From: a virus
IMG/VR virus record: IMGVR_UViG_3300012041_000016
Span: 1 to 42,749 of that record
DNA length: 42,749 nt
Strand: one strand, 5' to 3'
The notes under the pieces are model-generated. The model was not told where the DNA came from. It was given only the letters and a program-made list of their open reading frames with translations, and searched no databases. The position numbers were made by a program, and so were the translations under genes. Below are positions 668 through 34,069 of the stretch, one piece after another (positions within the stretch are counted from its first letter, which is position 1; the number at the start of each line of letters is the position of its first letter).

Positions 668-1249
668 ATGCCGTTTAAGAACCCGCATCCGCTCTATGGC
701 GTCTGGGCTAGGATGCGAGGCCGCTGTTCCAAGCCGGGTTATCAGCAATGGAAAGACTACGGCGGTCGGGGGATTAAGGTCTGTCCTGAGTGGGAGACTT
801 CATTCGCTCAATTTGTTGCGGACATGGGGCCTCGCCCCGAGGGCTACTCTATTGACCGCATAGACAATGACGGCGATTACACCCCCGCCAATTGTCGCTG
901 GGCTACGCGAAAGACCCAGCAACGAAACAGGCGCGGCGCTATCTACCTAACTATCGAAGGAACCTCTTATTTACTGGCAGAACTCGTGGAGCGTTCGGGG
1001 CACAAGCCGGATACGATCACCAAACGTGCTAAGTTAGGGCTTACTCTCGCTGAAGTTCTGGACCGCAAGAAACGGGTATTTACTGCGGGTCTAGCGTTAG
1101 GCGGGCGGGCCTCAGGGGCAAAGAAACAGGCTCTAAGAAAGTGCAAGAACGGCCATTTCTTTACCGAAGAAAACACCCTCATAACCAAGGAAGGATGGCG
1201 AAACTGTCGCCGTTGCCATGCAGATAGACAAAACCGCCGCCACTCGTAA
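668..1249 (+). CDS. HNH homing endonuclease (free-standing, opposite strand to the late operon)
   Basis: 193 aa. 'YSIDRIDNDGDYTPANCRWATRKTQQRN' is an HNH_3-type motif. C-terminal 'CKNGHFFTEENT...RNCRRCH' is a zinc-ribbon-like module. Strong SD. It lies between an ejection-protein gene and the tail-fibre gene. Confidence 0.85.
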   Translation: MPFKNPHPLYGVWARMRGRCSKPGYQQWKDYGGRGIKVCPEWETSFAQFVADMGPRPEGYSIDRIDNDGDYTPANCRWATRKTQQRNRRGAIYLTIEGTSYLLAELVERSGHKPDTITKRAKLGLTLAEVLDRKKRVFTAGLALGGRASGAKKQALRKCKNGHFFTEENTLITKEGWRNCRRCHADRQNRRHS

Positions 1250-6177: not shown

Positions 6178-7734
6178 TTACCCTATTGGATTGCCGACGT
6201 TGTAAATGAGATTAAAGCCGATCAATCTGAACTCAAGATCGGACGTTTCCGACGTAGTAACGGTCACTGCATAATGCAGCGCGATAGCGGTCCCGATATT
6301 GGTGCCGGAACGCCATTGCTTTGAAACAGTGGTGCCGGCCCAGTTCGCCTCATCCCAGTTGGACACGTCCCAAGTAAAGCCGGATATTTCAACGCTCTCC
6401 GATTGGTTCGGGTCCGTGGTCGGGTCCACATAATCGGCGGCAATCTGTACGCCACCATTGACCGTCGCATTGGACCGGATGATCGGCTGGATAAGTTCGA
6501 TCTTCTTCTGTCGGCCCGGCGCGCCGAGCTGGGAATATGAGGTCAGGAGTTCGGCCTGGATCGCCGCGCCATTGTCGCTTGAGCCGGTCTCGGCCTCATA
6601 AACACCGTCCACACCGCCGAAATACAGACTGTCATTGAACACCGCCCAGCACAGCGCATTGATGCCGGTCCATAACCCCCATGCGTTTGACAGGAGGTTC
6701 ATGATATACTGGCGGGATTCGAGCCCTTCTTCCTCCGGCACGTTAACAATCATGATGTTGGTTTCGGGGAACGAAACCATTTGCCAGCCGTCATTACCGC
6801 CATAGGCGAAAGCAGCGTCGGCAAATTCACGCCGTATAGGCGCCGTGATGGCCGCCGCCTCTAACACCGCCTTATCGAGGCTGATCGCCTTGGATAGCGG
6901 AATGATACCCGTCTTGGTGAGTATCATCAGATCGCCGCCAACATTGAACAGGCACCGCCTGCCAATCGGACGGCCAATGTAGTAGAGCCCCTTTAGGGCC
7001 AGTGTCGAAACGGTGTCCGGGTCGGTCATCTCATAGACCGCGACTTCGCCTTCCGACGTAATGAACACGTTCAGATCGTCAATCCCCTCGCCCGAGTCAT
7101 AGGACATCGAGCCGGCAGCCATGAGCTGGCCGCCGCGCTTGAATAACGTGCCAAGCGGAAATTCCGTAGCCGAGCCCGCCACGCTGTCAACTGGCAGATA
7201 CCAGGCCGACATGCTGTCGAGTTCGATGAACCATTGCCGGGTTTTGAATGCCCAGCCGAATACAAGATCGAAGCTGTCTATTCCCGATATGACGGGCTCG
7301 GTCCACGATGTGCCGTCATAGTTCAGGACCGGGTTGTCGCCATTGCAGGCAACGAGGTAGCGCGTCCCGGCAGCGGTCGTGAAATTGAAATGCGAAAACT
7401 GTGCGTTGCCGACGTCGGAAACCTCAGCACCGCCCAATCCGCCCGCTACGGTTACGTCGTAAATCCCCGTCCCGATTGCCGCGAACAGTGCGGAATCGCC
7501 CGCCGCATTATAGGGCATCAGCGTTTCAACAAGGCTTGAGCCCGTCACATGATCGGTATAGCCGCGCCGCAATCGCACCGCGTCCGTTTCCGGCACCCAA
7601 TTGGTGAGCAGCATAGCAACGCCCGGCTGTTCGGCGGTCAGGCCCTTGTCGGAACGCAGGCCACGGATAGGCGCCGGGACAACCTGTTGTGTTGCCGTCT
7701 GGCGGGCGGGTCGCTGTAAGGCTTGGCGGTACAC
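6178..7734 (-). CDS. Putative tail hub/nozzle protein (P22 gp10 / T7 gp12 position)
   Basis: 518-aa ORF directly after the adaptor-like gene. Function assigned by size and synteny only. Confidence 0.5.
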   Translation of the reverse strand: MYRQALQRPARQTATQQVVPAPIRGLRSDKGLTAEQPGVAMLLTNWVPETDAVRLRRGYTDHVTGSSLVETLMPYNAAGDSALFAAIGTGIYDVTVAGGLGGAEVSDVGNAQFSHFNFTTAAGTRYLVACNGDNPVLNYDGTSWTEPVISGIDSFDLVFGWAFKTRQWFIELDSMSAWYLPVDSVAGSATEFPLGTLFKRGGQLMAAGSMSYDSGEGIDDLNVFITSEGEVAVYEMTDPDTVSTLALKGLYYIGRPIGRRCLFNVGGDLMILTKTGIIPLSKAISLDKAVLEAAAITAPIRREFADAAFAYGGNDGWQMVSFPETNIMIVNVPEEEGLESRQYIMNLLSNAWGLWTGINALCWAVFNDSLYFGGVDGVYEAETGSSDNGAAIQAELLTSYSQLGAPGRQKKIELIQPIIRSNATVNGGVQIAADYVDPTTDPNQSESVEISGFTWDVSNWDEANWAGTTVSKQWRSGTNIGTAIALHYAVTVTTSETSDLEFRLIGFNLIYNVGNPIG

Positions 7735-7735
7735 T

Positions 7736-8443
7736 TTACGGCGTTACCGAATTAGGCGGCCAGGTGCGGCGCCGTGACGGCCAGTCGGAATCCTGCGGGC
7801 GAACGGTCGTGAGTGTCTGGAGCCCGCCCTTGTCTTTCTTGATCGAGGCTGCGAGCTTTTCATTGAAGGTGTTGAGGTCTTCGCTAAAGGCAAGGCCCTT
7901 GGCCTGCTTCCAGCGCCAGATAATGCCGTAACTTAATAGAAGCTCCGGGAACTCAAAGGTGTCGGTGTCAGCACTAAAGGTCGCTGCCGGCGTGACGCCC
8001 GCCTGCAAAATCCAGTACTTCGACACATACTCATAGCGGATCGTATCGCCATCGGACGGCGCATAGATGTTGAATACCCCGTCGATCATCCGCCAATGCT
8101 GGGGAAGTGTCGCGACCGAGGCGGTTAGCAGATAGGTCCAGTCCTGCGCGGTCGTGGGGCCGTCAATGCGCCAGTTGGTCGTGTCGTTCCACATCTCGGA
8201 ATTGTCCGACATGCGCTCGAATGCTGCCGGCGGGTAGCCGGTCTGCGCATTGGTCGCCGCACAGGTGAAGGTCGCCGCCGTGAGCAACGCTGACCAGTCG
8301 TGCTTGTCCAGCAGATCGGTCCCGGTTGCCATGAGCAGCCCGCGCAACTGCGCAACCTGCACATCCGTATTGCCAACCACTGTGGTTGGAATCGGGATGG
8401 TCAGGAGTTCGCAGGCTGTGCGGACAGTTGTGAGCAATGTCAT
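7736..8443 (-). CDS. Putative head-tail adaptor (P22 gp4 / T7 gp11 position)
   Basis: 235-aa ORF whose start overlaps the stop of the upstream gene. Position immediately upstream of the hub-like gene. Confidence 0.45.
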   Translation of the reverse strand: MTLLTTVRTACELLTIPIPTTVVGNTDVQVAQLRGLLMATGTDLLDKHDWSALLTAATFTCAATNAQTGYPPAAFERMSDNSEMWNDTTNWRIDGPTTAQDWTYLLTASVATLPQHWRMIDGVFNIYAPSDGDTIRYEYVSKYWILQAGVTPAATFSADTDTFEFPELLLSYGIIWRWKQAKGLAFSEDLNTFNEKLAASIKKDKGGLQTLTTVRPQDSDWPSRRRTWPPNSVTP

Positions 8444-9099
8444 GCGGCCTCGGCGTCCTCTAGCTTAGGTGGGCGGCCACGCCCGCGCTTGGGCTCTGAA
8501 TCCGCAGGGGGAGCAGTCTGCGAAAGCAAAGCCTCCATCTGCGCTCTGAGCGTGGCCAACTCTTCGCCCTGCTTGGCTATCGTGTCGTCCTGCACCTTGG
8601 CACGGGCTGCGGCGACGTTCTTGTCGCCGGCCTCGATGAACCGCTGGGCTTGCTTCTGCAATTCGCGGACGCGCGGGGCCTGTATCTTGTCTCGGGCGCT
8701 ATCAGGAAGCGTTGCAAATTCCTCGATAGTATAGATGCCCTGTTTCTTGATGGCGTCGCGGTCTTCCTCGCGCAGAAAGGTCGCAATACTGAGCGGCGTG
8801 CCTTCCAGCGGCATTTCTTCCGCCTTCTGCCAAGCCCGGTAGCGTTCCATGATATAGGCGCGCTTGAGCCGCGCCTGCTGCACGGTCGGATTGTCGTCGG
8901 CGCCATTCACAACGCGGTCGATGTGGCTGATCTTCTCAGGCACGACGAGCGAATTGGCCTGTCCTTTCGGACACCACATGACCCAATCTTCCATTTCAGG
9001 AAGGCCGGTCTTGGGATTCACATAGGCTACGTCGGATTCAACCTCGCGCGCCTTGGTGTAGAATTTGAGGACGGTGATACTCAGTTCATTGGCAGGCAT
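8440..9099 (-). CDS. Structural-module protein with C-terminal coiled coil and AT-hook-like motif
   Basis: 219 aa. C-terminus '...SEPKRGRGRPPKLEDAEAA' contains a GRP-core AT-hook. Confidence 0.5.
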   Translation of the reverse strand: MPANELSITVLKFYTKAREVESDVAYVNPKTGLPEMEDWVMWCPKGQANSLVVPEKISHIDRVVNGADDNPTVQQARLKRAYIMERYRAWQKAEEMPLEGTPLSIATFLREEDRDAIKKQGIYTIEEFATLPDSARDKIQAPRVRELQKQAQRFIEAGDKNVAAARAKVQDDTIAKQGEELATLRAQMEALLSQTAPPADSEPKRGRGRPPKLEDAEAA

Positions 9100-9108
9100 A
9101 AAGGCTCC

Positions 9109-9342
9109 TTATGTGGCGTAGGGGTTAGTGCGGGCGATGGTCAGCGTTGCCCCGCCATCAACGGTGATCGGTGTATTGAACACCTTGCCGTTGTCGGTCG
9201 ATGACGTAATCATGACCTGTACATTCTTGCGCCCGATGACAGCGCCGGTTGCAGCCGTAAAGCTGGTGATGGACGTGGCGCCGTTGGTGATCGAGCCGGT
9301 TCCGAGAAGGACCGGACGCTTAAAAATCGAGCACGTTGACAT
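9109..9342 (-). CDS. Small Ser/Thr/Gly-rich (likely beta-rich) structural-module protein
   Basis: 77 aa. Strong AAGGAG SD 6 nt upstream of the ATG at 9342. The start lies inside the 3' end of the HNH gene. Confidence 0.6.
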   Translation of the reverse strand: MSTCSIFKRPVLLGTGSITNGATSITSFTAATGAVIGRKNVQVMITSSTDNGKVFNTPITVDGGATLTIARTNPYAT

Positions 9343-9802
9343 GGTTTTCTCCTTTGGCTTTGACGGCGCGGCGCTGATTTCGCCGAAGCGCGTTCACGTA
9401 TTTGTTTCGACAAATCCGACAGGTACGGAATGGGTTTCTCGTTGTCGGTTTGGCGACTATCGTATTTTCCGGCGTGTATTCATGCCCCTGCGGGCAATGT
9501 GTCTTGCGAGAGTTTCGTTTACCGCCCCAATCTCCGCGCGCGATATTTTCGAGATGAGTAACTGCCTCAAGATGATCCGGGTTTACGCAAGACCTGACTC
9601 GGCATTTGTGGTCAAGATCAAGACCGGCTGGTATTGGCCCTTTGTGGGCTTGATACGAGACACGATGTGCGTAATGAACCTTGCGCCGATCCCCAATTCG
9701 ACCATATCCCGCAGGATCAATCGCCGCGATCCAAAGCCAGCACCCAGACATAGGCTCCGGCATGTACTTTTCCGAAAACCGCTCAAGCAGAGTGGCCTTC
9801 AT
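9320..9802 (-). CDS. HNH endonuclease (free-standing, inside the structural operon)
   Basis: 160 aa. 'GLDLDHKCRVRSCVNPDHLEAVTHLENI' is an HNH signature. C-terminal 'CPQGHEYTPENT...RTCRICR' is the same module as in the 668..1249 product. Confidence 0.85.
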   Translation of the reverse strand: MKATLLERFSEKYMPEPMSGCWLWIAAIDPAGYGRIGDRRKVHYAHRVSYQAHKGPIPAGLDLDHKCRVRSCVNPDHLEAVTHLENIARGDWGGKRNSRKTHCPQGHEYTPENTIVAKPTTRNPFRTCRICRNKYVNALRRNQRRAVKAKGENHVNVLDF

Positions 9803-10110
9803 TCGTGTACCTCCGGTGAGGCAGGCTTCGGCACAACGCCGGTGCGCTGCAAAATCTTGATGTGGGATAGCTTCTTTTCCGTCTGCTCCAGACGTGCGTT
9901 GATCTGTTCAACGGCGTCCTTGTTGCCGTGCTCGCCTTCGACGCGATCGACAAGCGCATCAAGCTTGGCCTCGGCCTTGTCTACGCGCGAGCCGATAATC
10001 CGGCACATTTGCCGGAAGATGTCCTCGACTTCAGCCGCGCGCTTGTTTACCTTGAGAAATTTCTTCTGGTAGGTTGTCAGAAAGTGCTCGAATTCTTCCT
10101 GTAGTGTCAT
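9799..10110 (-). CDS. Coiled-coil protein of unknown function
   Basis: Start chosen at the internal ATG 10110 (GGAG SD 8 nt upstream) rather than the ORF-track start 10155. 'MTLQEEFEHFLTTYQKKFLKVNKRAAEVEDIF...'. Confidence 0.5.
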   Translation of the reverse strand: MTLQEEFEHFLTTYQKKFLKVNKRAAEVEDIFRQMCRIIGSRVDKAEAKLDALVDRVEGEHGNKDAVEQINARLEQTEKKLSHIKILQRTGVVPKPASPEVHE

Positions 10111-10723
10111 CGGTATCGCTCCATAGTTCGGTTTCGTGCGGGCGTGGTCGGCCATGGAAACAAATTACCCGCGCATTCTTCGGAACCCCGTCCTGGCATT
10201 CGGTCTTCCACGAGAAAATCTGGTCGGGGATCATGTCTTGCCAGAGGTCGGCGGTTTCCTGAATTTCCTCAATCCATGCCTGGTCGCCGCCGGGGTGATA
10301 TTGCGGCCTGCCACAGCGGTCCCACACACGCCACATATGGTCCATTGTTCCGGCTTCCCATGCCATCAGGCCGGAGTTGAGATTCCCCTTGAAGTAGAAA
10401 TCACGAAGCATCGCGAACTTACCGCGATAGTTGGCAATGTCGGACAGATCGCCAGTTATAACGGTGTCGAGGTCGAAGTATAAAACCCGCTCGCCCTTGG
10501 GCAGTATGCCGGGCCGAAATAAGGAAATTTTTGCCCACCAACCGTGAACCCCAGGATCAGCCTCGACGGTTCGTACCCCATTGGGCACTAAGGCTGGATT
10601 ATCCGTTACGCACCACGGGCGGTATGTGTACAGATGTCGATCTACGCCATCAAAGAGACGACGGATGTATTCCGTCCCGCGTTCGCAGTAATTCCCGACG
10701 TGAACGCAGACGACGTTAATCAT
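10031..10723 (-). CDS. Putative GT-A-type glycosyltransferase (DxD motif)
   Basis: 230 aa. 'VLYFDLDTVITGDL' is a DxD motif in the context expected for nucleotide-sugar transferases. The ATG overlaps the upstream stop (ATGA at 10720-10723). Confidence 0.5.
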   Translation of the reverse strand: MINVVCVHVGNYCERGTEYIRRLFDGVDRHLYTYRPWCVTDNPALVPNGVRTVEADPGVHGWWAKISLFRPGILPKGERVLYFDLDTVITGDLSDIANYRGKFAMLRDFYFKGNLNSGLMAWEAGTMDHMWRVWDRCGRPQYHPGGDQAWIEEIQETADLWQDMIPDQIFSWKTECQDGVPKNARVICFHGRPRPHETELWSDTDDTTGRIRALSDNLPEEISQGKQARG

Positions 10724-12126
10724 TCGCCACCGTACACATAGAGGCTGTCATGCCCGATCCGGGCGGCGCGGTAGTATTGACGCCGTTTCAGCCAGTCGCG
10801 CGCTGCATCCGGCTTCAAGCCATGCAGGTCGGCGGCGAGTTTGTTTTCCTCGATGATAATGGCGGGCTTGAACCGCCTGATCGTACTTTCCGCCCCGCGC
10901 AGCGCCGGCTCCTCATAGCCCTCGATGTCGAGCCAGATCAGGTCGCACTCATCGAGAACCATGTCATCGATTGGCGCGACGATTGTCTCGTCGCCGGCAA
11001 CGATGTGAACCGCGCCTGAATTGCCCTTCTCATGGCTGGCGGTGCCTACCTTGCTCTTGAACTCGCCCAGCGCATAGCGCTTCTTGGTGATGTTGGTCTG
11101 GCTTTCCGTGTTCTTGAGCAGGCAGGCGAAGTTTTCACGGTTCGGCTCGAACGTGCTGACGTGCTCGAAGTAGCTTGCCAACGCCCTCGGATAGACACCG
11201 ACATTGCCGCCGGCCTGAATGCATGTCCCGCGCCGGGGGATTAACTTCATGAACTCCGGGATGTTGCGGGATTCACGCAGGATGAAATTGCGCCCTTGAA
11301 CGTCGGTTGTGGGCCATTCAAACGGCTGGTTTGTCTTGAGCCAATGGCCATAGCGCGCCTGCAACAGTCCATCCCCGAACATCGTGTACTCGGTCGGCTC
11401 GACTTCCGGGTCGCGGCTTTGCTCCATGAGCGAGATAAAATCTTCGACCTGCCCTATGAACGGTATGCGCGTTTGATAGCCGTCGTAATTTACCCACGCC
11501 TTCGCGTCTTGATGGTCGGGGTAAGCGTGTGACGCCTTACCTCGAAATGAACTGTCGAGCCCATGCAGATGGAACTTTCTAAAGCCCAGGTGATAGCCTA
11601 GCGTGATCCAGCGCAGCCCCATGGTGGTTCCGCCCGGTATCTGCGTCCAGCCCTTGTCGCCGTAGTGCTGGCCTAGAAGTTCGTCCAGCCCGTCTATCGG
11701 ATGCAGGTGCCATAGATAAACCCGGCATTTCGCGGCCAGGAGCTTGTCAAAGACCTTGGGATGAACGCATGAGCCAAGGAAGTAAGCGACCTTCGGGTGC
11801 GGCTCTATGATGTCAACAATATTGTCTTTCGGGTGGCAAATGCCGCACATATGCGGCACAACGCCCTTGCCGAGAAGATAGGACAATGACCCATTCACGG
11901 CAGCAACGTAGCCGGTCAGTTGCGGGTAGGTGTCCTCAAGACTAGGCCCGCCGCCGGCAATCGAAAGTATCTGATCGTGCGCGGCGCATTGCGTGACTTC
12001 CGGCAGGCCCAGCGACAGCGCATAGCGGACATTTTCGAGTAGCTGTTCCGGCGTGTGAGTCGGAATCAAAGCGAAGTTGAACGGCGTGGGTTGATAGCCC
12101 ACGCCGCCCTTTGTCATGTCGTGCAC
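10720..12126 (-). CDS. Fusion protein: N-terminal Maf/DUF115 (MptE-like) glycosyltransferase-like domain plus C-terminal FkbM-family methyltransferase
   Basis: 468 aa. N-terminal half has 'SIAGGGPSL', 'AAVNGSLSYLLGKGVVPHMCGICHP' and 'GGTTMGLRWITLGYHLGFRKFHLHGLDSS'. C-terminal half has 'CIQAGGNVGVYPRALA', 'VSTFEPNRENF' and 'LIWLDIEGYEEPALRGA' (Methyltransf_21/FkbM-like). The GTG start abuts the stop of the decoration-like gene; an alternative ATG is at 12117. Confidence 0.55.
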   Translation of the reverse strand: MHDMTKGGVGYQPTPFNFALIPTHTPEQLLENVRYALSLGLPEVTQCAAHDQILSIAGGGPSLEDTYPQLTGYVAAVNGSLSYLLGKGVVPHMCGICHPKDNIVDIIEPHPKVAYFLGSCVHPKVFDKLLAAKCRVYLWHLHPIDGLDELLGQHYGDKGWTQIPGGTTMGLRWITLGYHLGFRKFHLHGLDSSFRGKASHAYPDHQDAKAWVNYDGYQTRIPFIGQVEDFISLMEQSRDPEVEPTEYTMFGDGLLQARYGHWLKTNQPFEWPTTDVQGRNFILRESRNIPEFMKLIPRRGTCIQAGGNVGVYPRALASYFEHVSTFEPNRENFACLLKNTESQTNITKKRYALGEFKSKVGTASHEKGNSGAVHIVAGDETIVAPIDDMVLDECDLIWLDIEGYEEPALRGAESTIRRFKPAIIIEENKLAADLHGLKPDAARDWLKRRQYYRAARIGHDSLYVYGGE

Positions 12127-12633
12127 TTAGTTGCGCACCGTCACAACGTTGGTCGTGAACGGCCCTTCGAGCCAATAGCTGTCAACGAACGTGCCCACGA
12201 CGTGAACGGTCGTGGTCTTGCGCGCGTTGAAGATATGGTCACCGATGACCGACGCATCGTCCACCGAGCCCGCCGTGCCGGTCAAGGCAAGGAAGCCCGA
12301 TGAATGCGTGATCGAGGTCAGGCCGCGGGCCTGCGCGATGCCGTGCGTTTGATACCAGCCAAATTTGGTCGTGGTATCGCAAGCCGCCATTGCAACCGCC
12401 AGCGGGTAAGTCCCGTTAGCAGTAGCGCGGACGGACGTGCCGAGCGCCGGGGCATATCCAACCCAATCGGAAGCGGCGGTAGAGCCGACACCCTTGAGGT
12501 AGATAAACTTGCCGGCGCCGTAGGTTTCGTCAACGGCATCGACGCGCGTACCGAGCGCGTGACGCTGCGTGGTTTCCGGAGTGCTGTTGATCGGTTGCCA
12601 ACCAGCGCCGGGAGTCGTGATTCTCCAAGTCAT
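12127..12633 (-). CDS. Putative capsid decoration/cement protein
   Basis: 168 aa, AAGGAG SD, immediately downstream of the major capsid gene. Function assigned by position. Confidence 0.5.
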   Translation of the reverse strand: MTWRITTPGAGWQPINSTPETTQRHALGTRVDAVDETYGAGKFIYLKGVGSTAASDWVGYAPALGTSVRATANGTYPLAVAMAACDTTTKFGWYQTHGIAQARGLTSITHSSGFLALTGTAGSVDDASVIGDHIFNARKTTTVHVVGTFVDSYWLEGPFTTNVVTVRN

Positions 12634-12657: not shown

Positions 12658-13608
12658 TTAATCGAATAGGCGGCCTTGCAGCGAGCGATTGCTCGTCACA
12701 AGTTGGCCCATCCAATACATCGGGATAATCACCGCATCCTGGTTCGTCGGGACTTTTTCATCGTCCTGCGTCCACTGAGCGTCTTTGTGCTGCACGAGCT
12801 TCAGGTAATCGGTGTTAAGGAAGTAACCGATTTCAGCAGTCGTGCCGAAGTTGGTGTTGGTGTCGAAGATGACGTCTGCCGTCTTATACTTCAGCGATTC
12901 AAAGCCTGCCGACGCCGATGAAGACGAGGCATAGCGTTGGTTCGCCTGAAGCGCCGACTCGTAGTAATTGAAGAAGTCATGCGAGAAGACGATCAGGTCG
13001 GGCTTGTCCATGCCGCGCACCAGCGACAGCCACAGCGTATTCATATCGCCAATGATTGTCGTAGCGGACGGCGTGCCGGTCGTGACGAACTTCGACTTCC
13101 AGAAGGTATAAGTACCGGAGACGATGCCGCCCACGGTGCCCGTACCATCTGCCGTCGCAATTGCGCCAAGGCCGCCGATCTGGTTTGAGAGCGCACCCGT
13201 CGAATACAGGTCAACCGACATGTTGTTCGCCGTGGTCCGCTTGGCGTTGGCAATACGCGCCTTGACCAGCTTTATCATCGCCTCTTCGCCGCTGTTCATG
13301 CGGATTTCCCGCCCTGAAGCTACGACGTGGATAGCCGACTGTGCCCAATCATACTTCGCAGCCGACAGAACGTCGGACGCGGAGGTGTCGAGCGGATCAT
13401 AACCGGAATAGCGCATGAACGTGCTGTTCTCAGCCCAGTCCAGCGGCTCGACGATTTCGTAGCCGCCGCTGACGGTTTCGATCTGCCCTTTCTTTTTGAG
13501 TCGCGACATCAAGGCATTCTGAAGCGACACGTTGTCAGTGATTTCCTTGGGGTGATGCCTCAAGGTCGTCGTCACCATCTCGGTGAACGTCGAGTTGGGG
13601 GAAGCCAT
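12658..13608 (-). CDS. Major capsid protein
   Basis: 316 aa, follows the scaffold-like gene. 'MASPNSTFTEMVTTTLRHHPKEITDNVSLQNALMSRLKKKG...' resembles podovirus major capsid N-termini. SD AAGGTG. Confidence 0.75.
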   Translation of the reverse strand: MASPNSTFTEMVTTTLRHHPKEITDNVSLQNALMSRLKKKGQIETVSGGYEIVEPLDWAENSTFMRYSGYDPLDTSASDVLSAAKYDWAQSAIHVVASGREIRMNSGEEAMIKLVKARIANAKRTTANNMSVDLYSTGALSNQIGGLGAIATADGTGTVGGIVSGTYTFWKSKFVTTGTPSATTIIGDMNTLWLSLVRGMDKPDLIVFSHDFFNYYESALQANQRYASSSSASAGFESLKYKTADVIFDTNTNFGTTAEIGYFLNTDYLKLVQHKDAQWTQDDEKVPTNQDAVIIPMYWMGQLVTSNRSLQGRLFD

Positions 13609-13621
13609 AGCTCACACCTTT

Positions 13622-14668
13622 CTAGCGTGTGGCCGATCTCCGATAGACTTCCCGCATCGTGTCTTCCATCGAACGAGGTGCTGAGGAATTGGCGGTCGAA
13701 CTCTTGACGTTGAGCGGGGCTGACCGCTTGGCGTCAGATGAACGCTTTTTGGCTTCCTCAAGCCGCTTGGCCTCTTCCGCCTTCTTCTCGGCCTCTAGCA
13801 CTTTGGCGCGCGCTTCCGGGTTTGCCCATCTGGCGCGGTCATAGGCTTTGGCGAGAACTTCGGTTATCGGGAGGTCGGGCGACTTCTGCTTGAGCACGAT
13901 GATTTCATGCTCGATCTCGTCTTCAAGGTCCGCGAAATCGGTTTTGTCTTTCGCAAAATCGGCAATTTGGGTTTGAATGGCCCCTTGTCTGCGCTCAAAT
14001 TCCTGGCGCTCTTGAGAGGACATCCGTTGCGATACTTCGGATTGCCAGCGGCGAAGGTCGGCTATCTCAGCGCGCAACGCATGTTCTGTTGCGTTCTGAG
14101 GTGAACCTTGCAGGCCGGCTAACGCTCGCAGATCGACCCCGTAAGCCTCAGCAAGATCCCGGATGGCAGAACGGGCGTCTCTTTCCAAATAGTCATTAGC
14201 GCGCAGGACTTGGGAAATCCCCTCCTCCACGCTCATGCCGTATTTGTCGAAGGTCGGCCTGCTCTGTTCCAGAACTCTTTGGAACGGCTCGTAGGCTTTC
14301 AACTGCTGCCCTTGCCGTGAGATATGCTCGTGGGCTTCCTGTTCCCGTTTGGCGACAAACGCCTTCACGTCGGATGGCAGGACATCCCACTTCGCCTTCA
14401 CATCGGCGGACCAGGACTGAGGGACGGGGATGGCAGTCGGAGACTGTTCCGGCGTTTTCTCGGTCGGGCTCTGGTCGGATTTGCTTGCGAACCGTCCATC
14501 GGGGGAGCGGTCAGGGTTGTTCTTCGCGTAGATGGCGCGCAGATCATCGTCTACGGACGGCGCAACATCATCTGTCGGTGCGTCTGAGGTATCGGTATCG
14601 GCTACAGCCTCGGTGGGCGCAGCAACGTCGTCAGCAGGCGCTAAATCAGCGCCTTCTTCATCGGCCAT
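13622..14668 (-). CDS. Scaffolding protein
   Basis: 348 aa, very acidic N-terminus and long charged helical segments (…EAEKKAEEAKRLEEAKKR…). Position between the portal block and the capsid gene. Confidence 0.65.
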   Translation of the reverse strand: MADEEGADLAPADDVAAPTEAVADTDTSDAPTDDVAPSVDDDLRAIYAKNNPDRSPDGRFASKSDQSPTEKTPEQSPTAIPVPQSWSADVKAKWDVLPSDVKAFVAKREQEAHEHISRQGQQLKAYEPFQRVLEQSRPTFDKYGMSVEEGISQVLRANDYLERDARSAIRDLAEAYGVDLRALAGLQGSPQNATEHALRAEIADLRRWQSEVSQRMSSQERQEFERRQGAIQTQIADFAKDKTDFADLEDEIEHEIIVLKQKSPDLPITEVLAKAYDRARWANPEARAKVLEAEKKAEEAKRLEEAKKRSSDAKRSAPLNVKSSTANSSAPRSMEDTMREVYRRSATR

Positions 14669-24670: not shown

Positions 24671-24766
24671 TCAGTCCTCCCAGGGGTCTTTGTGATGAGG
24701 CCAAACGGCGACAAGGCTAATGATGGCCAGCCCGATTCCTAAAACGATGATGGCTTCCCAATTCAT
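24671..24766 (-). CDS. Possible 31-aa transmembrane peptide
   Basis: MNWEAIIVLGIGLAIISLVAVWPHHKDPWED. The ATG overlaps the methyltransferase stop (ATGA at 24763-24766). Confidence 0.4.
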   Translation of the reverse strand: MNWEAIIVLGIGLAIISLVAVWPHHKDPWED

Positions 24767-25425
24767 TCGTAGTCGCCCTCGCGCTCTAGATTCTTGCGAC
24801 AAGGCGGAATCCACTGGAACTCAGTCTGGCCCCGCCACCCCTGCATCCAGACAAGCCAGCAATACGCCGTCGCCGTAGTAGCTTTGTTACTCAGGCGCCC
24901 CTTGACCATTGGGACGCGCTCGGCAAACTGAGCAATTATGGTCGGGGGGCGGACGCGGAATAGCCCATAGTAGCGCCCGACGCTTTCAAGGAAAGCGATG
25001 CGAACAAGTAGAGCAACACCTTTTCTGGCACGCCCTAACGCGGCGAACGCGAACTCCAATCCCAATCGAAATGGTGGGTTGGTGATTACCCAATCGAAGC
25101 CAAGCGGGCTGGGCATCAGAAAGTCCACGACATCGCCGTGGCCATACAGGTGCACGTCGCTCGAATATACTTCAGTGAAGTATTCAGCCAATGGCCGCGC
25201 CATATGCCCCTCGCCGCAAGCTGGCTCCCACACACTAAGAGACGACAAGCTATCTCCGCCCCCCAAGACGCGCTCGCAAAGCGCCCGCGTTGCCCATGGC
25301 GGCGTCGGAAAGAAATCAAGCGAATCGTGTGGCTCGACACGGCGCTGCATGACTGCTGTCGAGGTGTTCTGCGTCATGCAATACTCGCTCTTTGCAGGTG
25401 CGGTAGAATGCAAAGCTGTAGACAC
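24763..25425 (-). CDS. Orphan SAM-dependent DNA methyltransferase (N6-adenine type, NPPF motif)
   Basis: 220 aa. 'DFFPTPPW', motif I 'VWEPACGEGHM', motif IV 'VITNPPF'. No cognate nuclease nearby. The start is uncertain (GTG 25425 or ATG 25377). Confidence 0.75.
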   Translation of the reverse strand: MSTALHSTAPAKSEYCMTQNTSTAVMQRRVEPHDSLDFFPTPPWATRALCERVLGGGDSLSSLSVWEPACGEGHMARPLAEYFTEVYSSDVHLYGHGDVVDFLMPSPLGFDWVITNPPFRLGLEFAFAALGRARKGVALLVRIAFLESVGRYYGLFRVRPPTIIAQFAERVPMVKGRLSNKATTATAYCWLVWMQGWRGQTEFQWIPPCRKNLEREGDYE

Positions 25426-28457: not shown

Positions 28458-28687
28458 CAAAGCATTACACATTCTCCGAGATGGCAGACGCCATGAAAAG
28501 CTCAACAGGTGATACGATGGGCCGCCATATAACAATCACGTTCGCCATAGCCGAGACAGATGGCCCGCGCGACCGTCGCTATCAGGCGACGTTCAATGAC
28601 TTTGACCTCGATTGCCCGATTGGCTGGGGTGAGACAGAAGCCGAAGCGATAGAAGACTTACTCGTAATGCATGGATTGCCGAAATGA
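28454..28687 (+). CDS. Small early protein with a HicB/UPF0150-like C-terminal motif
   Basis: 77 aa, 'GWGETEAEAIEDLLVMHG'. ATGA overlaps at both ends. Confidence 0.5.
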   Translation: MTKHYTFSEMADAMKSSTGDTMGRHITITFAIAETDGPRDRRYQATFNDFDLDCPIGWGETEAEAIEDLLVMHGLPK

Positions 28688-29385
28688 AAACCTCAGAGAA
28701 CATCAACGAGCTTGCGGGCGCCCTTGCCAAGGCCCGCGCTGAAATCAAAAACCCCGTCAAGAACAAGACAGTCAGGGTCACACCGCGTGAGGGTAAGGCG
28801 TATTCATACTCCTACGCTGAATTGCCATCGGTGCTAGATGCCATCACCGGACCGCTGGCCAATAATGGGCTGGTTATTGTTGAAACCATTTCCCGCGAGG
28901 AAAATCACTTAATACTGCACACCCGTCTTGTTCATTCGTCGGGCCAGTGGATTGAGGGCGCTTATCCCATTTTCTGCGACATGACCAAGCCGCAAGTGAT
29001 CGGCGGGGCGCTGACATATGCGCGGCGGTATGCAACATCAGCCATCATCAATATTGCCAGCGACGAAGACGACGACGCCAGCACAACGCACGGCGAAGAT
29101 TATAGCATCGCCCCAAAGAATGGCAACGGACAGAAACCGTTCCCGAACGGGAACCCGGATGTCAAATACACCAAGACGACAGCCACCACGCCCCGGGCTG
29201 CGATGGCGACCGATAACAACGCCTTCTATGTGAAGCTCCAGAAGGAGATTGACGAACTCAAGACGAAGGATGAGGGCCGCGCGTGGAAGGCCATGCGGGA
29301 ACTCGACCTGCAAGAGCGCGTCTCGCCAGAGGCCATGCTGCACCTCTCTGAGCGCTATGAGACACAGATGGCGGCGCTACCATGA
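28684..29385 (+). CDS. erf: ERF-family single-strand annealing protein
   Basis: 233 aa. 'YSYSYAELPSVLDAITGPLANNGLVI...LVHSSGQWIEG...IGGALTYARRYATSAIINIASDEDDD' matches the ERF pattern. Confidence 0.8.
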   Translation: MKTSENINELAGALAKARAEIKNPVKNKTVRVTPREGKAYSYSYAELPSVLDAITGPLANNGLVIVETISREENHLILHTRLVHSSGQWIEGAYPIFCDMTKPQVIGGALTYARRYATSAIINIASDEDDDASTTHGEDYSIAPKNGNGQKPFPNGNPDVKYTKTTATTPRAAMATDNNAFYVKLQKEIDELKTKDEGRAWKAMRELDLQERVSPEAMLHLSERYETQMAALP

Positions 29386-30530: not shown

Positions 30531-30752
30531 ATGCCTGAAATCTCATGGACGCCAAGAGGAATGAGCCGAGACGAAGCGGCCCGTTACATCGGTATAGGCG
30601 TCACCTTGTTTGACGAGATGGTGCGGGATGGCCGGATGCCGGGGCCTAAGATTATCAACTCCCGCAAGGTCTGGGATCGGCTGGACCTTGACGCGGCTTT
30701 CCGGGAGCTTCCCTATAGCGCCCCAGCGCGTCCAAGAGTGTTCGCGCTATGA
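30531..30752 (+). CDS. xis: Excisionase / AlpA-like HTH protein
   Basis: 'MSRDEAARYIGIGVTLFDEMVRDGRMPGPKIINSRKVWDRLDLDAAF' is typical of the excisionase family. It lies directly upstream of int and is coupled to it (ATGA). The start is uncertain (30531 or 30561). Confidence 0.65.
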   Translation: MPEISWTPRGMSRDEAARYIGIGVTLFDEMVRDGRMPGPKIINSRKVWDRLDLDAAFRELPYSAPARPRVFAL

Positions 30753-31798
30753 GGGAGGCGAACATGGTCCGTGTGGAATTTCGCTATCTGATAGCCGACA
30801 TCGACGTTAATGGGAATGTTCGCCGCTATGTCCGCAAGCCAGGGTGTAAAAAAGTTAGACTTAGGGAGAAATTCAACTCTCCTGAGTTCGTGCAGGAATA
30901 CCTCGCTGCAATGGCCGGCGCAATTAAGGCGCAGCCGCGCCCCTTATCTGGCAAAGCCGACGAAAACAGCCTGCAATGGCTAGTCAACCGCTACTACGGC
31001 AGCACCACATTTCGGGAGCTTGGCGATGAAACCCAAAAGGTCAGACGACGAATCCTCGATAAAATTTGCGACCGCAACGGTTCAATGGACTATCGAGACA
31101 TTACAGGGGGGCACGTTCGTCTCGCTATGGATGCCCTACGGGCCGCTCCGGAAGCAGCGAACGGCTATCTTAAGACACTTAGAGGATTATTTCGGTTCGC
31201 CTGTGAAAGAGAACTGGTCCCGTCCGACCCGTCAGCCGGGATCAAAAAGGTCCGCCACAAGACGGACGGCCACCACACCTGGGCGATAGAAGAGGTCAAG
31301 CAATATGAAGCAAGACACCCGGTCGGAACAAAAGCCAGATTGGCGCTCGCCCTGCTTCTTTACACGGGCCAAAGACGCGGCGACGTGGTGCGGATGGGGC
31401 GTCAGCACGTCGAACACGGTCTTTTGCGCGTCGTGCAGGGAAAGACCAGAGAAGCGCTCCAGTTGCCCGTGCTCCCAATATTGGTGGACATACTCGCCGC
31501 CTCCCCCGTGGGAGACCTAACCTATCTCGTTACCCAATGGGGCAAGCCATTCACGGCAGCCGGATTCGGGGGGAAATTCAGGGAATGGTGCGATCAGGCA
31601 GGCTTAAAGCACTGCACAGCCCACGGGCTTAGGAAAGCAGGGGCGACCATCGCAGCCGAAAACGGCGCGACCGATCGAGAATTGATGGCGATGTTTGGAT
31701 GGCGCACCGCTGCGCAAGTCACTGTTTACACGCGGAAAACGGAAAACAAACGGCTGGCGGCGAGCGGAATGCCGCTGCTTACGATGGAGAGGAAATGA
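30749..31798 (+). CDS. int: Tyrosine integrase
   Basis: 349 aa. 'LLYTGQRRGDVV' (Arg), 'AHGLRKAGAT' (HxxR), 'VTVYTRK' (Tyr). Confidence 0.9.
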   Translation: MREANMVRVEFRYLIADIDVNGNVRRYVRKPGCKKVRLREKFNSPEFVQEYLAAMAGAIKAQPRPLSGKADENSLQWLVNRYYGSTTFRELGDETQKVRRRILDKICDRNGSMDYRDITGGHVRLAMDALRAAPEAANGYLKTLRGLFRFACERELVPSDPSAGIKKVRHKTDGHHTWAIEEVKQYEARHPVGTKARLALALLLYTGQRRGDVVRMGRQHVEHGLLRVVQGKTREALQLPVLPILVDILAASPVGDLTYLVTQWGKPFTAAGFGGKFREWCDQAGLKHCTAHGLRKAGATIAAENGATDRELMAMFGWRTAAQVTVYTRKTENKRLAASGMPLLTMERK

Positions 31799-33493: not shown

Positions 33494-34069
33494 CTACTTC
33501 CTCCTAAACAAAGATGCGATCAGATCGAGGATGGCTTTCAGAATGCCCCTGGGAGCCGCAGGCGCGGGCGCTGGGGGCTGTTCTATGTCGGGGGGTACTG
33601 GAGGTGGGGGGATTGGCGAAGAGCCACCAGAACGCCGGAAAAGGGCCTCCTCATCGGCGCGGCGGTTGACCAGCCCTTGCAGCACCTTGCCGCCAGCCTT
33701 GCGCCAGGAGGAGAAGGCATTGGCGGCGCCCTCCATGTCCCCGACGTTGAACAGCTTGACGAGGGTTGATTTGGCAAAGTTGCCCGGCCCGATATTGAAG
33801 CACAAAGAGGTCATGGCATCGAACTGGTTCTGGGTTGCCGGGCGGGTGATGGCATTGGCCACGGCGGTTTCGTATTTGACCAGGTCGCGGATGAGAATGT
33901 CCTCGGCTTCCTGCCGGGTGATTTTCATGCCGGGGACAGGCTTGGGCGGGCCTGCCATGGCGGTATGGCCGAAACCGATGGTCCAGACGCCAACCGCGTC
34001 CGCATAGGCATCGAGCCTGACGCCTTCCCATTTCTTTATGAGGTCGATTCCGGTTCGGCTAGTTTTCAT
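33494..34069 (-). CDS. GH24 lysozyme-type endolysin with Pro-rich linker and C-terminal amphipathic helix
   Basis: 191 aa. 'LIKKWEGVRLDAYADAVGVWTIGFGHT' carries the catalytic Glu/Asp/Thr pattern of T4-lysozyme-like muramidases. The C-terminus is 'PIPPPPVPPDIEQPPAPAPAAPRGILKAILDLIASLFRRK'. Confidence 0.85.
   Translation of the reverse strand: MKTSRTGIDLIKKWEGVRLDAYADAVGVWTIGFGHTAMAGPPKPVPGMKITRQEAEDILIRDLVKYETAVANAITRPATQNQFDAMTSLCFNIGPGNFAKSTLVKLFNVGDMEGAANAFSSWRKAGGKVLQGLVNRRADEEALFRRSGGSSPIPPPPVPPDIEQPPAPAPAAPRGILKAILDLIASLFRRK

Follow-up and report, generated by a model that had tools for sequence, protein, structure and literature searches.

A two-gene enzyme cassette in the head operon of the phage analysed here is interpreted, with a probability of roughly 0.6, as a module, encoded by the phage, for cytoplasmic protein glycosylation late in infection, with the phage's own decoration protein, p168, as its target. 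Sugar-coating of this protein at one serine, by a 468-aa fusion of a Maf-like transferase domain with an FkbM-family methyltransferase together with a second, GT8-like transferase, is the most likely reading of the data. Phage-encoded virion glycosylation of such a kind has so far been demonstrated only in mycobacteriophages, and the same arrangement is present in dozens of uncultured relatives. The window, that is, the whole stretch of DNA that was analysed, comprises 42,749 nucleotides.

Position of the cassette in the head operon

The operon structure was observed directly. On the minus strand, the major capsid protein (MCP) gene is the first gene of the local head block and is followed by p168, the fusion, and the 230-aa enzyme, which are translationally coupled in a late operon (Table 1). 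From p168 through the HNH endonuclease gene, successive gaps or overlaps (negative values) are 0, -4, -125, and -4 nt. As the initial annotation had reported, a GTG start (12124-12126) abuts the TAA of p168 (12127-12129), and the enzyme genes overlap by an ATGA at 10720-10723. In a public gene call for a twin contig, the fusion starts at an ATG located 9 nt downstream (12115-12117, giving 465 aa) and the 230-aa ORF is missed; the tight coupling of p168 and the fusion is kept with either start. Ribosome-binding sites are weak for the enzymes and strong for the structural genes, p168 having a strong AAGGAG. The enzymes had also been placed between the capsid and decoration genes and the tail genes, which is correct insofar as they directly follow p168; on the other side, the 118-aa ORF, the HNH endonuclease gene, a 77-aa gene, and the 219-aa gene precede the adaptor and tail genes.

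Table 1. Features of the head block and cassette (positions in the window)
Feature	Position	Strand	Evidence or remark
Major capsid protein (MCP), 316 aa	12658..13608	-	NCBIfam NF033394 capsid_maj_Podo, 2.2e-92; phrog_9953 major head protein, 2.1e-79
p168, 168-aa decoration-type major virion protein, predicted substrate	12127..12633	-	phrog_29386 virion structural protein, 2e-16
Codon of p168 Thr106, second enzyme-specific conserved residue	12316..12318	-	covariation
Codon of p168 Ser128, loop VDDA-S-VIGD, predicted O-glycosylation acceptor	12250..12252	-	covariation, no demonstration
468-aa fusion ORF	10720..12126	-	N-half PF01973, C-half FkbM
N-half, MptE/Maf-like (sialyltransferase-like) transferase domain	11317..12126	-	Pfam core aa 29-195 = 11542-12042
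C-half, FkbM-family SAM methyltransferase	10720..11316	-	TIGR01444 and Pfam FkbM matches together 10774-11226
230-aa GT8-like enzyme	10031..10723	-	phrog_1962 'glycosyltransferase', 1.3e-34
Orphan 118-aa ORF	9799..10155	-	no family match
HNH_3 homing-type endonuclease	9320..9802	-	PF13392, 4.8e-16; phrog_826, 3.3e-49
219-aa Mx8-p50-like head/neck gene	8440..9099	-	synteny in p168-sampled loci: MCP, p168, p219, adaptor
SU10-type adaptor/tail protein, start of neck and tail genes	7736..8443	-	PF24175, 3.4e-5; phrog_6013 tail protein, 9.8e-49

The HNH gene is an insertion that separates the cassette from the 77-aa gene. It is missing in the syntenic relatives L005 and L011, and its GC3 is 0.516, whereas most head and tail genes nearby have 0.69-0.75. 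The 118-aa ORF, for which profile searches found no family and which is missing in the same two relatives, is part of an insertion and probably lies outside the glycosylation module. In cassette-less relatives the 219-aa gene directly follows p168 and thus shows where the insertion site ends downstream.

Cooccurrence and covariation of the enzyme with p168

p168 is 40% identical to Mx8 p49 (AAK94384), whose annotation is 'major virion structural protein' and whose gene likewise lies directly after the Mx8 MCP gene. A Foldseek search with p168 gave weak matches, nearly all of them to decoration or cement proteins of capsids and to DUF2190, and those to solved decoration proteins were not significant (E at least 0.2). 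More than 567 p168 homologues were found in IMG/VR, and in other loci the protein is often present without the enzymes.

Gene order was observed in about 70 uncultured phage loci with very different capsid types. The Maf-like gene stood directly after a p168 homologue in 62 of the 63 loci in which the interval was covered, while MCP identity across the Maf-like loci ranged from 27 to 77%. The cooccurrence of cassette and decoration type that the initial annotation had proposed to survey is found across different capsids. Similarity of p168 tracked that of the Maf-like domain (Spearman 0.80) and did not track MCP (-0.17), adaptor (0.02), or p518 (-0.04) similarity. The unvarying position next to p168 may also be due to a preferred site of insertion. 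For related contigs, the only named organisms were those of three metagenome bins (Alphaproteobacteria, Xanthobacteraceae, and Planctomycetales).

Fusions of the Maf-like domain were observed repeatedly in the relatives, with unrelated methyltransferase families (FkbM, and class-I methyltransferases at either end), with the GT8-like enzyme (single ORFs of 450-510 aa), and with GT2. Class-I methyltransferases of other Pfam families occupy the FkbM slot in other phages of the group, and the minimal module consists of p168 and a lone 270-aa Maf-like protein (e.g., L166). The Maf-FkbM fusion, of which the initial annotation knew no characterised example in a Gram-negative podovirus head module, remains uncharacterised but is not rare, since 354 protein clusters match it; the Maf-like half was found in no cultured phage of a 50,697-record collection.

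Covariation between p168 residues and the enzyme was likewise observed. Among diverged nonredundant p168 proteins of the VDDA-S-VIGD loop type, position 128 was Ser in 40 of 42 proteins followed by a Maf-like gene and in none of 50 without one. The mean pairwise identity of the 42 enzyme-linked proteins was 49%, and only 15 of the 168 positions were as conserved as Ser128. In the 50 enzyme-less proteins the residue was V, A, Q, T, I, D, or N and the rest of the loop was conserved. A second position, 106, was Ser or Thr in all 34 proteins with the Maf-like gene versus 8 of 48 without it. Glycosylation of capsid or decoration proteins, as first suggested from the gene arrangement, is thus supported comparatively by synteny, fusions, and Ser128, without being proven, and no such site was found in the MCP.

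It is unlikely, although not to be dismissed, that the virion is modified elsewhere, on the MCP, another virion protein, or another p168 residue such as Thr106, with Ser128 being only a clade marker. The Ser128 association requires just 2-3 transitions on the p168 tree and therefore represents few independent events. It also has exceptions. Val128 accompanies the enzyme in L097; Thr128 is found without it in L195, L242, and L225; and in L218 the loop contains a Ser but no enzyme gene adjoins. In approximately 30 loci whose Maf-like/class-I methyltransferase fusion is distant, the p168 loop is of a different kind and lacks Ser128. Conservation of Thr106 reaches 95% or more in the enzyme-linked set alone, where Leu105 is specifically conserved too, and both capsid and tail-tube proteins are modified in mycobacteriophages. 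Exposure of Ser128 cannot be judged, because this region of the p168 model is poorly resolved (pLDDT of about 49). However, no Ser/Thr column in the MCP tracked the enzyme (best column, 21/54 versus 1/48), MCP similarity was uncorrelated with enzyme similarity, and position 128 varies freely in the enzyme-less p168 set even though that set is more closely related overall.

Quite unlikely, too, is a lysogenic-conversion or host-takeover moron that modifies flagellin, pili, or LPS/capsule precursors, and so changes receptors or excludes other phages, its position in the head module being incidental. The phage is temperate (integrase and Erf recombinase), the substrates known for Maf/PseD-type enzymes are flagellins, GT8 has LPS enzymes among its members, the PHROG class of the glycosyltransferase family is 'moron, auxiliary metabolic gene and host takeover', and the GC3 of the GT8-like gene (0.584) is lower than those of its neighbours. 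However, promoter-like and terminator-like sites were no more frequent than expected by chance and the enzyme genes are coupled to structural genes, so that the enzymes would be silent in a lysogen. Furthermore, neither enzyme contains a hydrophobic segment that could span a membrane (maximum KD(19) at most 1.04), the position directly after p168 is fixed in about 70 phages with different capsids, and the covariation of Ser128 would be left unexplained.

Domain identities and proposed reactions

The domain identities are also shown. PF01973 (MptE-like) matched residues 29-195 of the fusion (E of 8.9e-13; 48.8 bits; cut-off, 34.6), PF05050 (FkbM) matched residues 322-451 (E of 1.1e-13; 52.1 bits; cut-off, 22.7), and TIGR01444 matched aa 301-426 (56 bits; cut-off, 37.7). 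The AF2 model of the fusion had a pLDDT of 91.6, and the best structural match of the C-half was the FkbM protein 2py6 (1.5e-5 by sequence and 2.6e-9 by fold). Members of the FkbM family include O-methyltransferases, among them NoeI and FkbM, whose substrates are sugars and polyketides.

The 230-aa protein scored below the cut-off of the Pfam GT8 model (E of 0.048; 13.7 bits; cut-off, 24.3). Its family profile matched the Skp1 alpha-galactosyltransferase 6mw5 (6.4e-9), glycogenin-1 (2e-6), and the GT8 entry 5gvv (2.5e-3), whose targets are in all three cases proteins or glycans linked to proteins. Invariant or nearly invariant positions in the family include D84, L85, and D86 (the D84-L-D86 motif at 10466-10474), G146-D147, H190-G191, P193, and P195. 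On this sequence evidence, the GT-A assignment first made from the DxD motif is narrowed to a glycogenin-like GT8-type enzyme. The last ~29 aa, which overlap the 118-aa ORF by 125 nt and are missing in 25 homologues, are a lineage-specific tail. The initial annotation had named profile and structure searches as the test of its DUF115, FkbM, and GT-A calls, all of which held, and every motif that it quoted was found in the translations.

That the N-half is no glycosyltransferase but a kinase- or diphosphokinase-like group-transfer enzyme, as in archaeal MptE, which together with the methyltransferase would place a nonsugar mark (e.g., a methylated phospho-group) on a virion protein or small molecule, is improbable but has several points in its favour. 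PF01973 is named for the archaeal 6-hydroxymethylpterin diphosphokinase; the Foldseek match of the N-half to the Maf glycosyltransferase 5mu5 (1.5e-5) was only ~30-fold better than that to the M. jannaschii HPPK (8sbu, 4.5e-4; 8sd5, 6.5e-4); and sequence searches of the PDB with the window's own N-domain matched neither Maf nor Cst-II. In addition, the Maf-like domain is almost obligatorily fused to a methyltransferase, a feature of no Maf protein known to us. Nevertheless, the Maf fold match is the better one, syntenic relatives match the NCBIfam model 'flagellin modification protein PseD' (2e-10 to 4e-6) and no archaeal MptE model, and the GT8-like and GT2 fusions are glycan-building contexts. 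The GGGPS and H-x-H-G-x-D-S-S motifs also resemble the CMP-binding motifs of the Cst-II sialyltransferase, a resemblance that serves as a lead only.

Hypermodification of phage DNA by glycosylation or methylation of bases is scarcely credible, since, although glycosyltransferases and methyltransferases serve phages in that way, the cassette lies in the head module and not in the replication module, a separate DNA methyltransferase is encoded at 24763-25425, neither FkbM nor GT8 is to our knowledge a DNA-modifying family, and the link to p168 would be unexplained.

If the cassette glycosylates p168, the Maf-like domain would put a sugar on the hydroxyl of Ser128 in the conserved loop, the donor being, by analogy with Maf, PseD, and Cst-II, a host-supplied CMP-activated nonulosonic or ulosonic acid. 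The GT8-like enzyme would then add an alpha-linked hexose from a UDP-sugar, the fused FkbM domain would O-methylate the glycan, and the decorated p168 would afterwards assemble on the capsid surface. No sugar-nucleotide synthesis genes were found among the phage ORFs scanned. Candidate benefits are surface shielding, stability, adhesion, and a requirement for assembly. The substrate, site, donor, reaction order, and benefit to the phage are inferred, there being no biochemical or proteomic evidence for any of them.

Comparison with known systems

Maf enzymes work in the cytoplasm, where they O-glycosylate Ser/Thr residues of a protein from which a surface structure is later polymerised. The PF01973 central domain and its fold are common to the phage domain and the Maf/PseD proteins (M. 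magneticum Maf, 5mu5; C. botulinum Maf; S. oneidensis Maf-1 and Maf-2). Compared with the ~630-aa Maf, however, the phage domain has ~270 aa, lacks the N-terminal Rossmann-like and C-terminal helical/TPR domains, and is fused to methyltransferases or glycosyltransferases; no flagellin is involved, and the donor sugar is unknown. The C-half exceeds both curated cut-offs of the FkbM family (PF05050/TIGR01444, 2py6) and differs in its fusion to a Maf-like transferase, its substrate being unknown. In the GT8 family, glycogenin and Skp1 alpha-galactosyltransferase (Gat1) are cytoplasmic enzymes that glycosylate proteins or glycans attached to them; the DxD and C-terminal H-G-x-P-x-P motifs are conserved in the phage enzyme, which is shorter (~200 aa), falls below the Pfam GT8 cut-off alone, and has an unknown acceptor.

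Among phage proteins, P1 PmgQ shares 32% identity with the GT8-like enzyme across 70% of its length (E of 9e-15) and, judging from its record name, 'putative morphogenetic function protein', belongs to the P1 morphogenesis genes; unlike the enzyme described here, it has no adjoining Maf-like gene, and we know of no characterisation of its function. Mx8, whose p49 occupies the same slot as p168, lacks the cassette and has Val at position 128. With respect to head decoration proteins of the lambda-gpD/DUF2190 type, the weak fold neighbours of p168 comprise decoration or cement proteins of T1, Sf11, Pam3, lambda, and P21 as well as DUF2190 proteins.

Another close system is that of the mycobacteriophages, in which glycosyltransferase and O-methyltransferase genes modify the phages' own capsid and tail-tube proteins (Che8, Corndog, and cluster O; Freeman et al. 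2023, via PMC11600133). Those phages have actinobacterial hosts, whereas the host here is unknown; the key enzyme here is instead a Maf-like PF01973 domain fused to FkbM, accompanied by a GT8-like enzyme; and the cassette is part of the head operon and immediately follows the gene of the decoration protein, with one serine of that protein as the predicted target and no experiment as yet. The two systems have in common glycosyltransferases with an O-methyltransferase, enzymes that are soluble and expressed late, and a target that is a virion protein, which in the present phage is predicted.

Genome context and coupling of the cassette

The window contains the entire genome of a temperate podophage, with genes for terminase, portal, scaffold, major capsid protein (MCP), adaptor, endolysin, integrase, Erf recombinase, and DNA methyltransferase. 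Twin contigs of 42.7 kb were present in public assemblies; among 50,697 phage records there was no near-identical DNA and no close cultured relative. No tRNA genes were detected in the window by ARAGORN. The initial annotation had described two enzyme genes translationally coupled to the gene for p168, a 168-aa decoration-type protein, and both junctions were present in the sequence: the TAA of the p168 gene abuts the GTG of the 468-aa ORF (the fusion), and an ATGA overlap joins the fusion gene to the 230-aa ORF. All of the protein motifs quoted there were likewise found. From p168 to the HNH endonuclease gene, successive spacings were 0, -4, -125, and -4 nt.

Coordinates and strands of genes in the window
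Feature	Position	Strand
518-aa protein	6178-7734	-
SU10-type adaptor	7736-8443	-
219-aa Mx8-p50-like gene	8440-9099	-
77-aa ORF	9109-9342	-
HNH endonuclease	9320-9802	-
Orphan 118-aa ORF	9799-10155	-
230-aa ORF	10031-10723	-
468-aa ORF	10720-12126	-
p168 (168 aa)	12127-12633	-
MCP	12658-13608	-
Scaffold-like	13622-14668	-
DNA methyltransferase	24763-25425	-
Erf-like annealing protein	28684-29385	+
Tyrosine-type integrase	30749-31798	+
Endolysin	33494-34069	-

Ribosome-binding sites of the AAGGAG type were strong in the structural genes but not in the two enzyme genes, and promoter-like and terminator-like sites did not exceed their frequency in shuffled sequence. The GC3 of the fusion gene (0.723) was similar to that of its neighbors, the GT8-like 230-aa gene being the only one lower (0.584). 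Neither enzyme contained a hydrophobic segment. In the public gene call, the fusion starts at an ATG 9 nt downstream, giving 465 aa, and the 230-aa ORF is absent; on the twin contig L004, where this ORF occupies positions 11395 to 12087, a 109-aa ORF was called on the opposite strand instead. The JGI label of fusion homologues is only "FkbM family methyltransferase." Automatic annotation reduces the fusion to its methyltransferase and can overlook the GT8-like gene entirely.

The HNH_3 endonuclease gene and the orphan 118-aa ORF form an insertion (9320-10155, minus strand) between the GT8-like and 77-aa genes that was lacking in two syntenic relatives, L005 and L011. The endonuclease gene had a GC3 of 0.516, versus about 0.72 in its neighbors. 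The final ~29 residues of the 230-aa protein, which overlap the 118-aa ORF, were exclusive to the window phage, and both this tail and the 125-nt overlap seem to have arisen through the insertion. A second HNH endonuclease gene (668-1249, plus strand; phrog_3377, 1.2e-47) was located on the opposite strand, close to the tail-fibre end.

Domain assignments of the two enzymes

By curated thresholds, the fusion belongs to both the PF01973 and FkbM families, as the initial annotation had proposed for its DUF115/MptE-like N-terminal and methyltransferase C-terminal halves. Residues 29 to 195 matched PF01973 at 48.8 bits (cutoff, 34.6), covering model positions 3 to 169 of 171, and 10 syntenic relatives also passed this cutoff. 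The C-terminal half matched PF05050 (residues 322 to 451; 52.1 bits versus 22.7) and TIGR01444 (56 bits versus 37.7). An AlphaFold2 model built with 41 homologues (pLDDT, 91.6; pTM, 0.79) had as its best Foldseek neighbor in the PDB the FkbM methyltransferase 2py6 (2.6e-9), which was also matched by sequence (1.5e-5). Further neighbors were the Maf flagellin glycosyltransferase 5mu5 (1.5e-5; 292 aligned columns of the 632-aa entry), Mycobacterium hassiacum MeT1 (6g80, 1.1e-4), a sugar O-methyltransferase, and archaeal HPPK (8sbu and 8sd5; 4.5e-4 and 6.5e-4, respectively), the MptE enzyme.

Neither sequence nor profile comparison with the PDB gave a match to the N-domain; FkbM and generic methyltransferases were all that came up. 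In three syntenic relatives, the N-domain matched the NCBIfam model "flagellin modification protein PseD" (2e-10 to 4e-6) and did not match the NCBIfam MptE model. The Maf link of the N-domain therefore rests on the Pfam and fold matches together with the PseD matches of relatives. Assignment to archaeal MptE, which would call for MptE as closest relative and a folate or methanopterin context, was not supported, as HPPK was a weaker match than Maf and the neighboring genes are those of a phage head module. The GGGPS and HGLDSS motifs resemble those of Cst-II, and H188, D191, and H200 line an invariant pocket of the Maf-like domain. O-glycosylation of Ser or Thr from a nonulosonic or ulosonic acid activated with CMP is inferred by analogy, from fold and profile similarity only.

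The 230-aa protein, previously called a GT-A-type enzyme from its DxD motif, matched phrog_1962 "glycosyltransferase" (1.3e-34) but did not reach the Pfam GT8 threshold (PF01501; 13.7 versus 24.3 bits, E 0.048), and only 4 of 26 family members matched PF01501 at an E of ≤0.1 (best, 2.7e-4). Searched against the PDB, the 26-member family profile matched Skp1 alpha-galactosyltransferase (6mw5, 6.4e-9), glycogenin-1 (2.2e-6), and the GT8 entry 5gvv (2.5e-3). Residues D84, L85, D86, D147, and P193 were invariant in the family, and G146, H190, G191, and P195 were nearly so. Profile homology, a DxD motif, and a C-terminal His motif were thus all present. These profile matches and conserved residues mark the protein as a glycogenin-like GT8-type GT-A enzyme, which bears out the GT-A call by family profile and not by the Pfam cutoff.

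A similar protein, PmgQ of phage P1 (NC_005856, 81545-82099; 32% identity to the 230-aa product, E 9e-15), is named a "putative morphogenetic function" protein in P1 records, and jumbo phages of Xanthomonas and Stenotrophomonas also carry genes similar to that of the GT8-like enzyme. There are hints here that virion-linked GT8-like enzymes are perhaps more widespread.

Linkage of the cassette to p168 and to Ser128

p168 matched a PHROG "virion structural protein" family and was 40% identical to p49 of phage Mx8, whose gene follows the Mx8 MCP gene and is annotated "major virion structural protein." Residues 1 to 105 were modeled well and the remainder, including the region of Ser128, poorly. 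All PDB fold matches were nonsignificant (E ≥0.2), and almost all were decoration or cement proteins; the neighbors included T1, Sf11, Pam3, lambda gpD, P21 SHP, and the phi29 head-fibre base. In BFVD, significant matches were to uncharacterized phage proteins, with DUF2190 weaker (E 0.025). Because of the p49 homology, the PHROG match, and the decoration-type neighbors, "decoration-like" is a reasonable description of p168, although it is not proven by fold.

Fusion homologues comprised 354 protein clusters, including full-length MptE-FkbM fusions, stand-alone MptE-like proteins of ~265 aa, and fusions of an MptE-like domain with a class-I methyltransferase. In 73 IMG/VR loci and in contigs from an exact protein look-up, the order was always MCP, p168 homologue, Maf-like gene, further genes, and adaptor. 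Among loci in which the MCP-to-adaptor interval was covered, 62 had both p168 and the Maf-like gene, 11 had neither, 1 had the Maf-like gene without a detectable p168, and none had p168 alone. Selection of the loci by the enzyme had biased this count. Sampling by p168 yielded >567 relatives; 80 loci were kept, just 15 of them with the enzyme, so the proposition that p168 and the enzyme always occur together was rejected. The co-occurrence of cassette and decoration type, which the initial annotation proposed to survey, therefore holds in one direction: the enzyme implies p168, and most p168 genes lack it. As an accessory element, the cassette is inserted behind p168 and ahead of the 219-aa p50-like gene.

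Across 50 nonredundant loci, the similarity of p168 to that of the window tracked Maf-like domain similarity (Spearman, 0.80) and was uncorrelated with that of the MCP (-0.17), the adaptor (0.02), or the 518-aa protein p518 (-0.04). Therefore, p168 and the enzyme travel or evolve together. The nearest capsid relatives (MCP identity, 77% and 67%) lacked both. The closest of them, L086, encodes a different 159-aa protein behind its MCP (7716-8195); BLASTP gave no match of this protein to p168, and hhalign assigned 22% probability over a shared YGW.Q..G motif, so homology to p168 was not demonstrable. From this replacement, the exchange of decoration genes seems to be independent of that of the capsid gene.

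Several fusions were observed. Maf-like and GT8-like domains formed a single ORF in five loci (L035, L020, L030, L023, and L032), the Maf-like domain was fused to GT2 in L031, and in nearly every locus with the Maf-like enzyme only, it was joined at one end or the other to a class-I methyltransferase. In its minimal form, for example in L166, the module consisted of p168 and a single 270-aa Maf-like protein. In the loci of the enzyme-based count, GT8-like genes occurred only with a Maf-like gene and FkbM only with both, a nested pattern that weakly suggests an order of action of Maf-like enzyme, GT8, and methylation. By tblastn against the 50,697 phage records, the Maf-like half matched nothing even at an E of ≤1, and the 29 matches of the whole fusion all covered the FkbM half only. 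No isolate genomes of relatives identified a host; there were three metagenome bins only.

Gene duplications and interruptions were also seen in these loci. Two tandem p168 paralogues were found in L165 (5410-6798), and tandem Maf-like gene pairs were found in L031 (3597-6289; one member being the GT2 fusion), L041 (3424-5548), and L042. The MCP gene was split into pieces 0.3 to 0.9 kb apart in L007 (7501-9338), L014, L017, L018, L044, L063, L078, L161, and L165, with an opposite-strand HNH gene (7691-8317) between the pieces in L007; these splits look like intron or homing-endonuclease invasion.

Within p168, one residue tracked the enzyme. Among p168 proteins with a VDD-type loop, Ser128 was present in 34 of 34 with a Maf-like gene behind (enzyme linked) and 0 of 48 without one (enzyme-less). 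A single mixed clade gave 19 of 19 and 0 of 19, the latter having mostly Val; Mx8 p49 also has Val at this position. After addition of motif-selected loci (133 nonredundant ORFs), Ser128 was found in 42 proteins with the enzyme, 0 without, and 1 undetermined; for Thr, the numbers were 5, 3, and 1, respectively. The 42 enzyme-linked proteins with a VDD-type loop had a mean pairwise identity of 49%, with just 15 of 168 positions conserved at ≥95%, including Ser128 and Thr106. The 50 enzyme-less proteins were closer to one another (61%), yet had V, A, Q, T, I, D, or N at position 128, with the surrounding loop conserved (G122..D125-D126-x-V129-x-G131). The raw Fisher P value of 8e-24 is not valid as a measure of significance: on a neighbor-joining tree, the enzyme trait required 3 changes and Ser128 required 2, implying few independent events, and the motif-selected scan yielded exceptions (L097, L195, L242, L225, and L218).

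About 30 loci with a distant fusion of Maf-like and class-I methyltransferase domains had a different p168 loop. This second Maf-like lineage (L056, L072, L079, and about 30 others; p168 clusters 1 and 2) lies behind p168 proteins lacking the VDDxS loop and having "GLA-IAAAT," with a conserved Thr or Ser 1 to 2 residues later as a conceivable equivalent acceptor.

Proposed modification of p168 and known systems

The preferred reading, given a probability of roughly 0.6, is that the cassette forms a cytoplasmic module, expressed late, by which the decoration protein is O-glycosylated before heads are assembled or while they are. Domain identities, coupling, synteny, fusions, and covariation were directly observed; which protein and residue are modified, from which donor, in what order, and to what benefit is inferred. 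The Maf-like domain would act on Ser128 of p168, the GT8-like enzyme would extend the glycan, and its methylation would fall to the FkbM domain. The host would supply the donor sugars, since the scanned ORFs included none for sugar-nucleotide synthesis. Virion glycosylation, as proposed initially, has comparative support from synteny and covariation without experiment; the underlying gene-level observation is confirmed.

Modification of a virion target other than Ser128 is unlikely, although it keeps some room; no MCP column tracked the enzyme comparably, the best being 21 of 54 versus 1 of 48. Improbable as well is a moron or lysogenic-conversion function, in which the enzymes would modify the host surface or flagellin. 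A moron would be expected to have its own promoter and terminator, expression from the prophage, and often a deviant composition; promoter-like and terminator-like signals did not exceed chance, only the GT8-like gene deviated in GC3, and the fixed position behind p168 and the covariation also argue against it. Kinase-like, non-sugar chemistry is a still poorer explanation, given that Maf and PseD match better and that the domain is fused to glycosyltransferases. DNA hypermodification can be dismissed almost entirely, as the genes lie in the head module and it offers no link to p168.

A broader proposal is put forward only tentatively, short of even odds: that this is an unrecognized, widespread system of uncultured, probably proteobacterial podophages, in which a stripped-down Maf-type enzyme with a sialyltransferase fold places a host nonulosonic or ulosonic acid on one conserved decoration serine, followed by extension by a glycogenin-like GT8 enzyme and an O-methyl cap. 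Literature searches returned neither an account of a Maf-like or MptE-like enzyme encoded among phage head genes nor an experimental case of phage-encoded virion glycosylation beyond mycobacteriophages. If true, the system would take phage-encoded virion glycosylation beyond actinobacteriophages for the first time, and in a modular form in which methyltransferases and glycosyltransferases are swapped across lineages. It would offer a concrete, testable acceptor site in Ser128, a minimal two-gene system (p168 and the 270-aa transferase), and a natural domain-swap series that could be used for phage-capsid glyco-engineering.

The key enzyme of the cassette is envisaged as working like the Maf/PseD flagellin O-glycosyltransferases. 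Maf proteins have three domains, an N-terminal Rossmann-like domain, a central Maf_flag10 domain, and a C-terminal helical/TPR acceptor-binding domain (PMC11339370; 10.1101/2023.12.03.569772); in that work, the Maf enzymes of C. botulinum and S. oneidensis were expressed in E. coli strains engineered to make the donor sugars. The fusion has the central domain only (about 270 aa), followed by FkbM. Whereas Maf enzymes act on flagellin and are encoded in flagellar loci, the fusion gene lies in a phage head operon beside a virion protein, and no flagellar genes were found in the window ORFs scanned. With neither the flanking domains nor flagellin, the fusion falls outside the three-domain Maf family. 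A non-flagellin substrate would be the first for a Maf-type enzyme and would give these enzymes a second substrate class.

As described in PMC11600133, which cites Freeman et al. 2023, mycobacteriophage glycosyltransferases and an O-methyltransferase modify capsid and tail-tube proteins, and virion glycosylation weakens the neutralizing-antibody response. The cassette is alike in combining glycosyltransferases with a predicted O-methyltransferase; in contrast, its modified protein has not been observed, and support is comparative. The strategy would here reach a different and apparently common group, environmental temperate podophages, with other enzymes: a Maf-like domain, a methyltransferase of the FkbM or class-I type, and a GT8 or GT2 glycosyltransferase.
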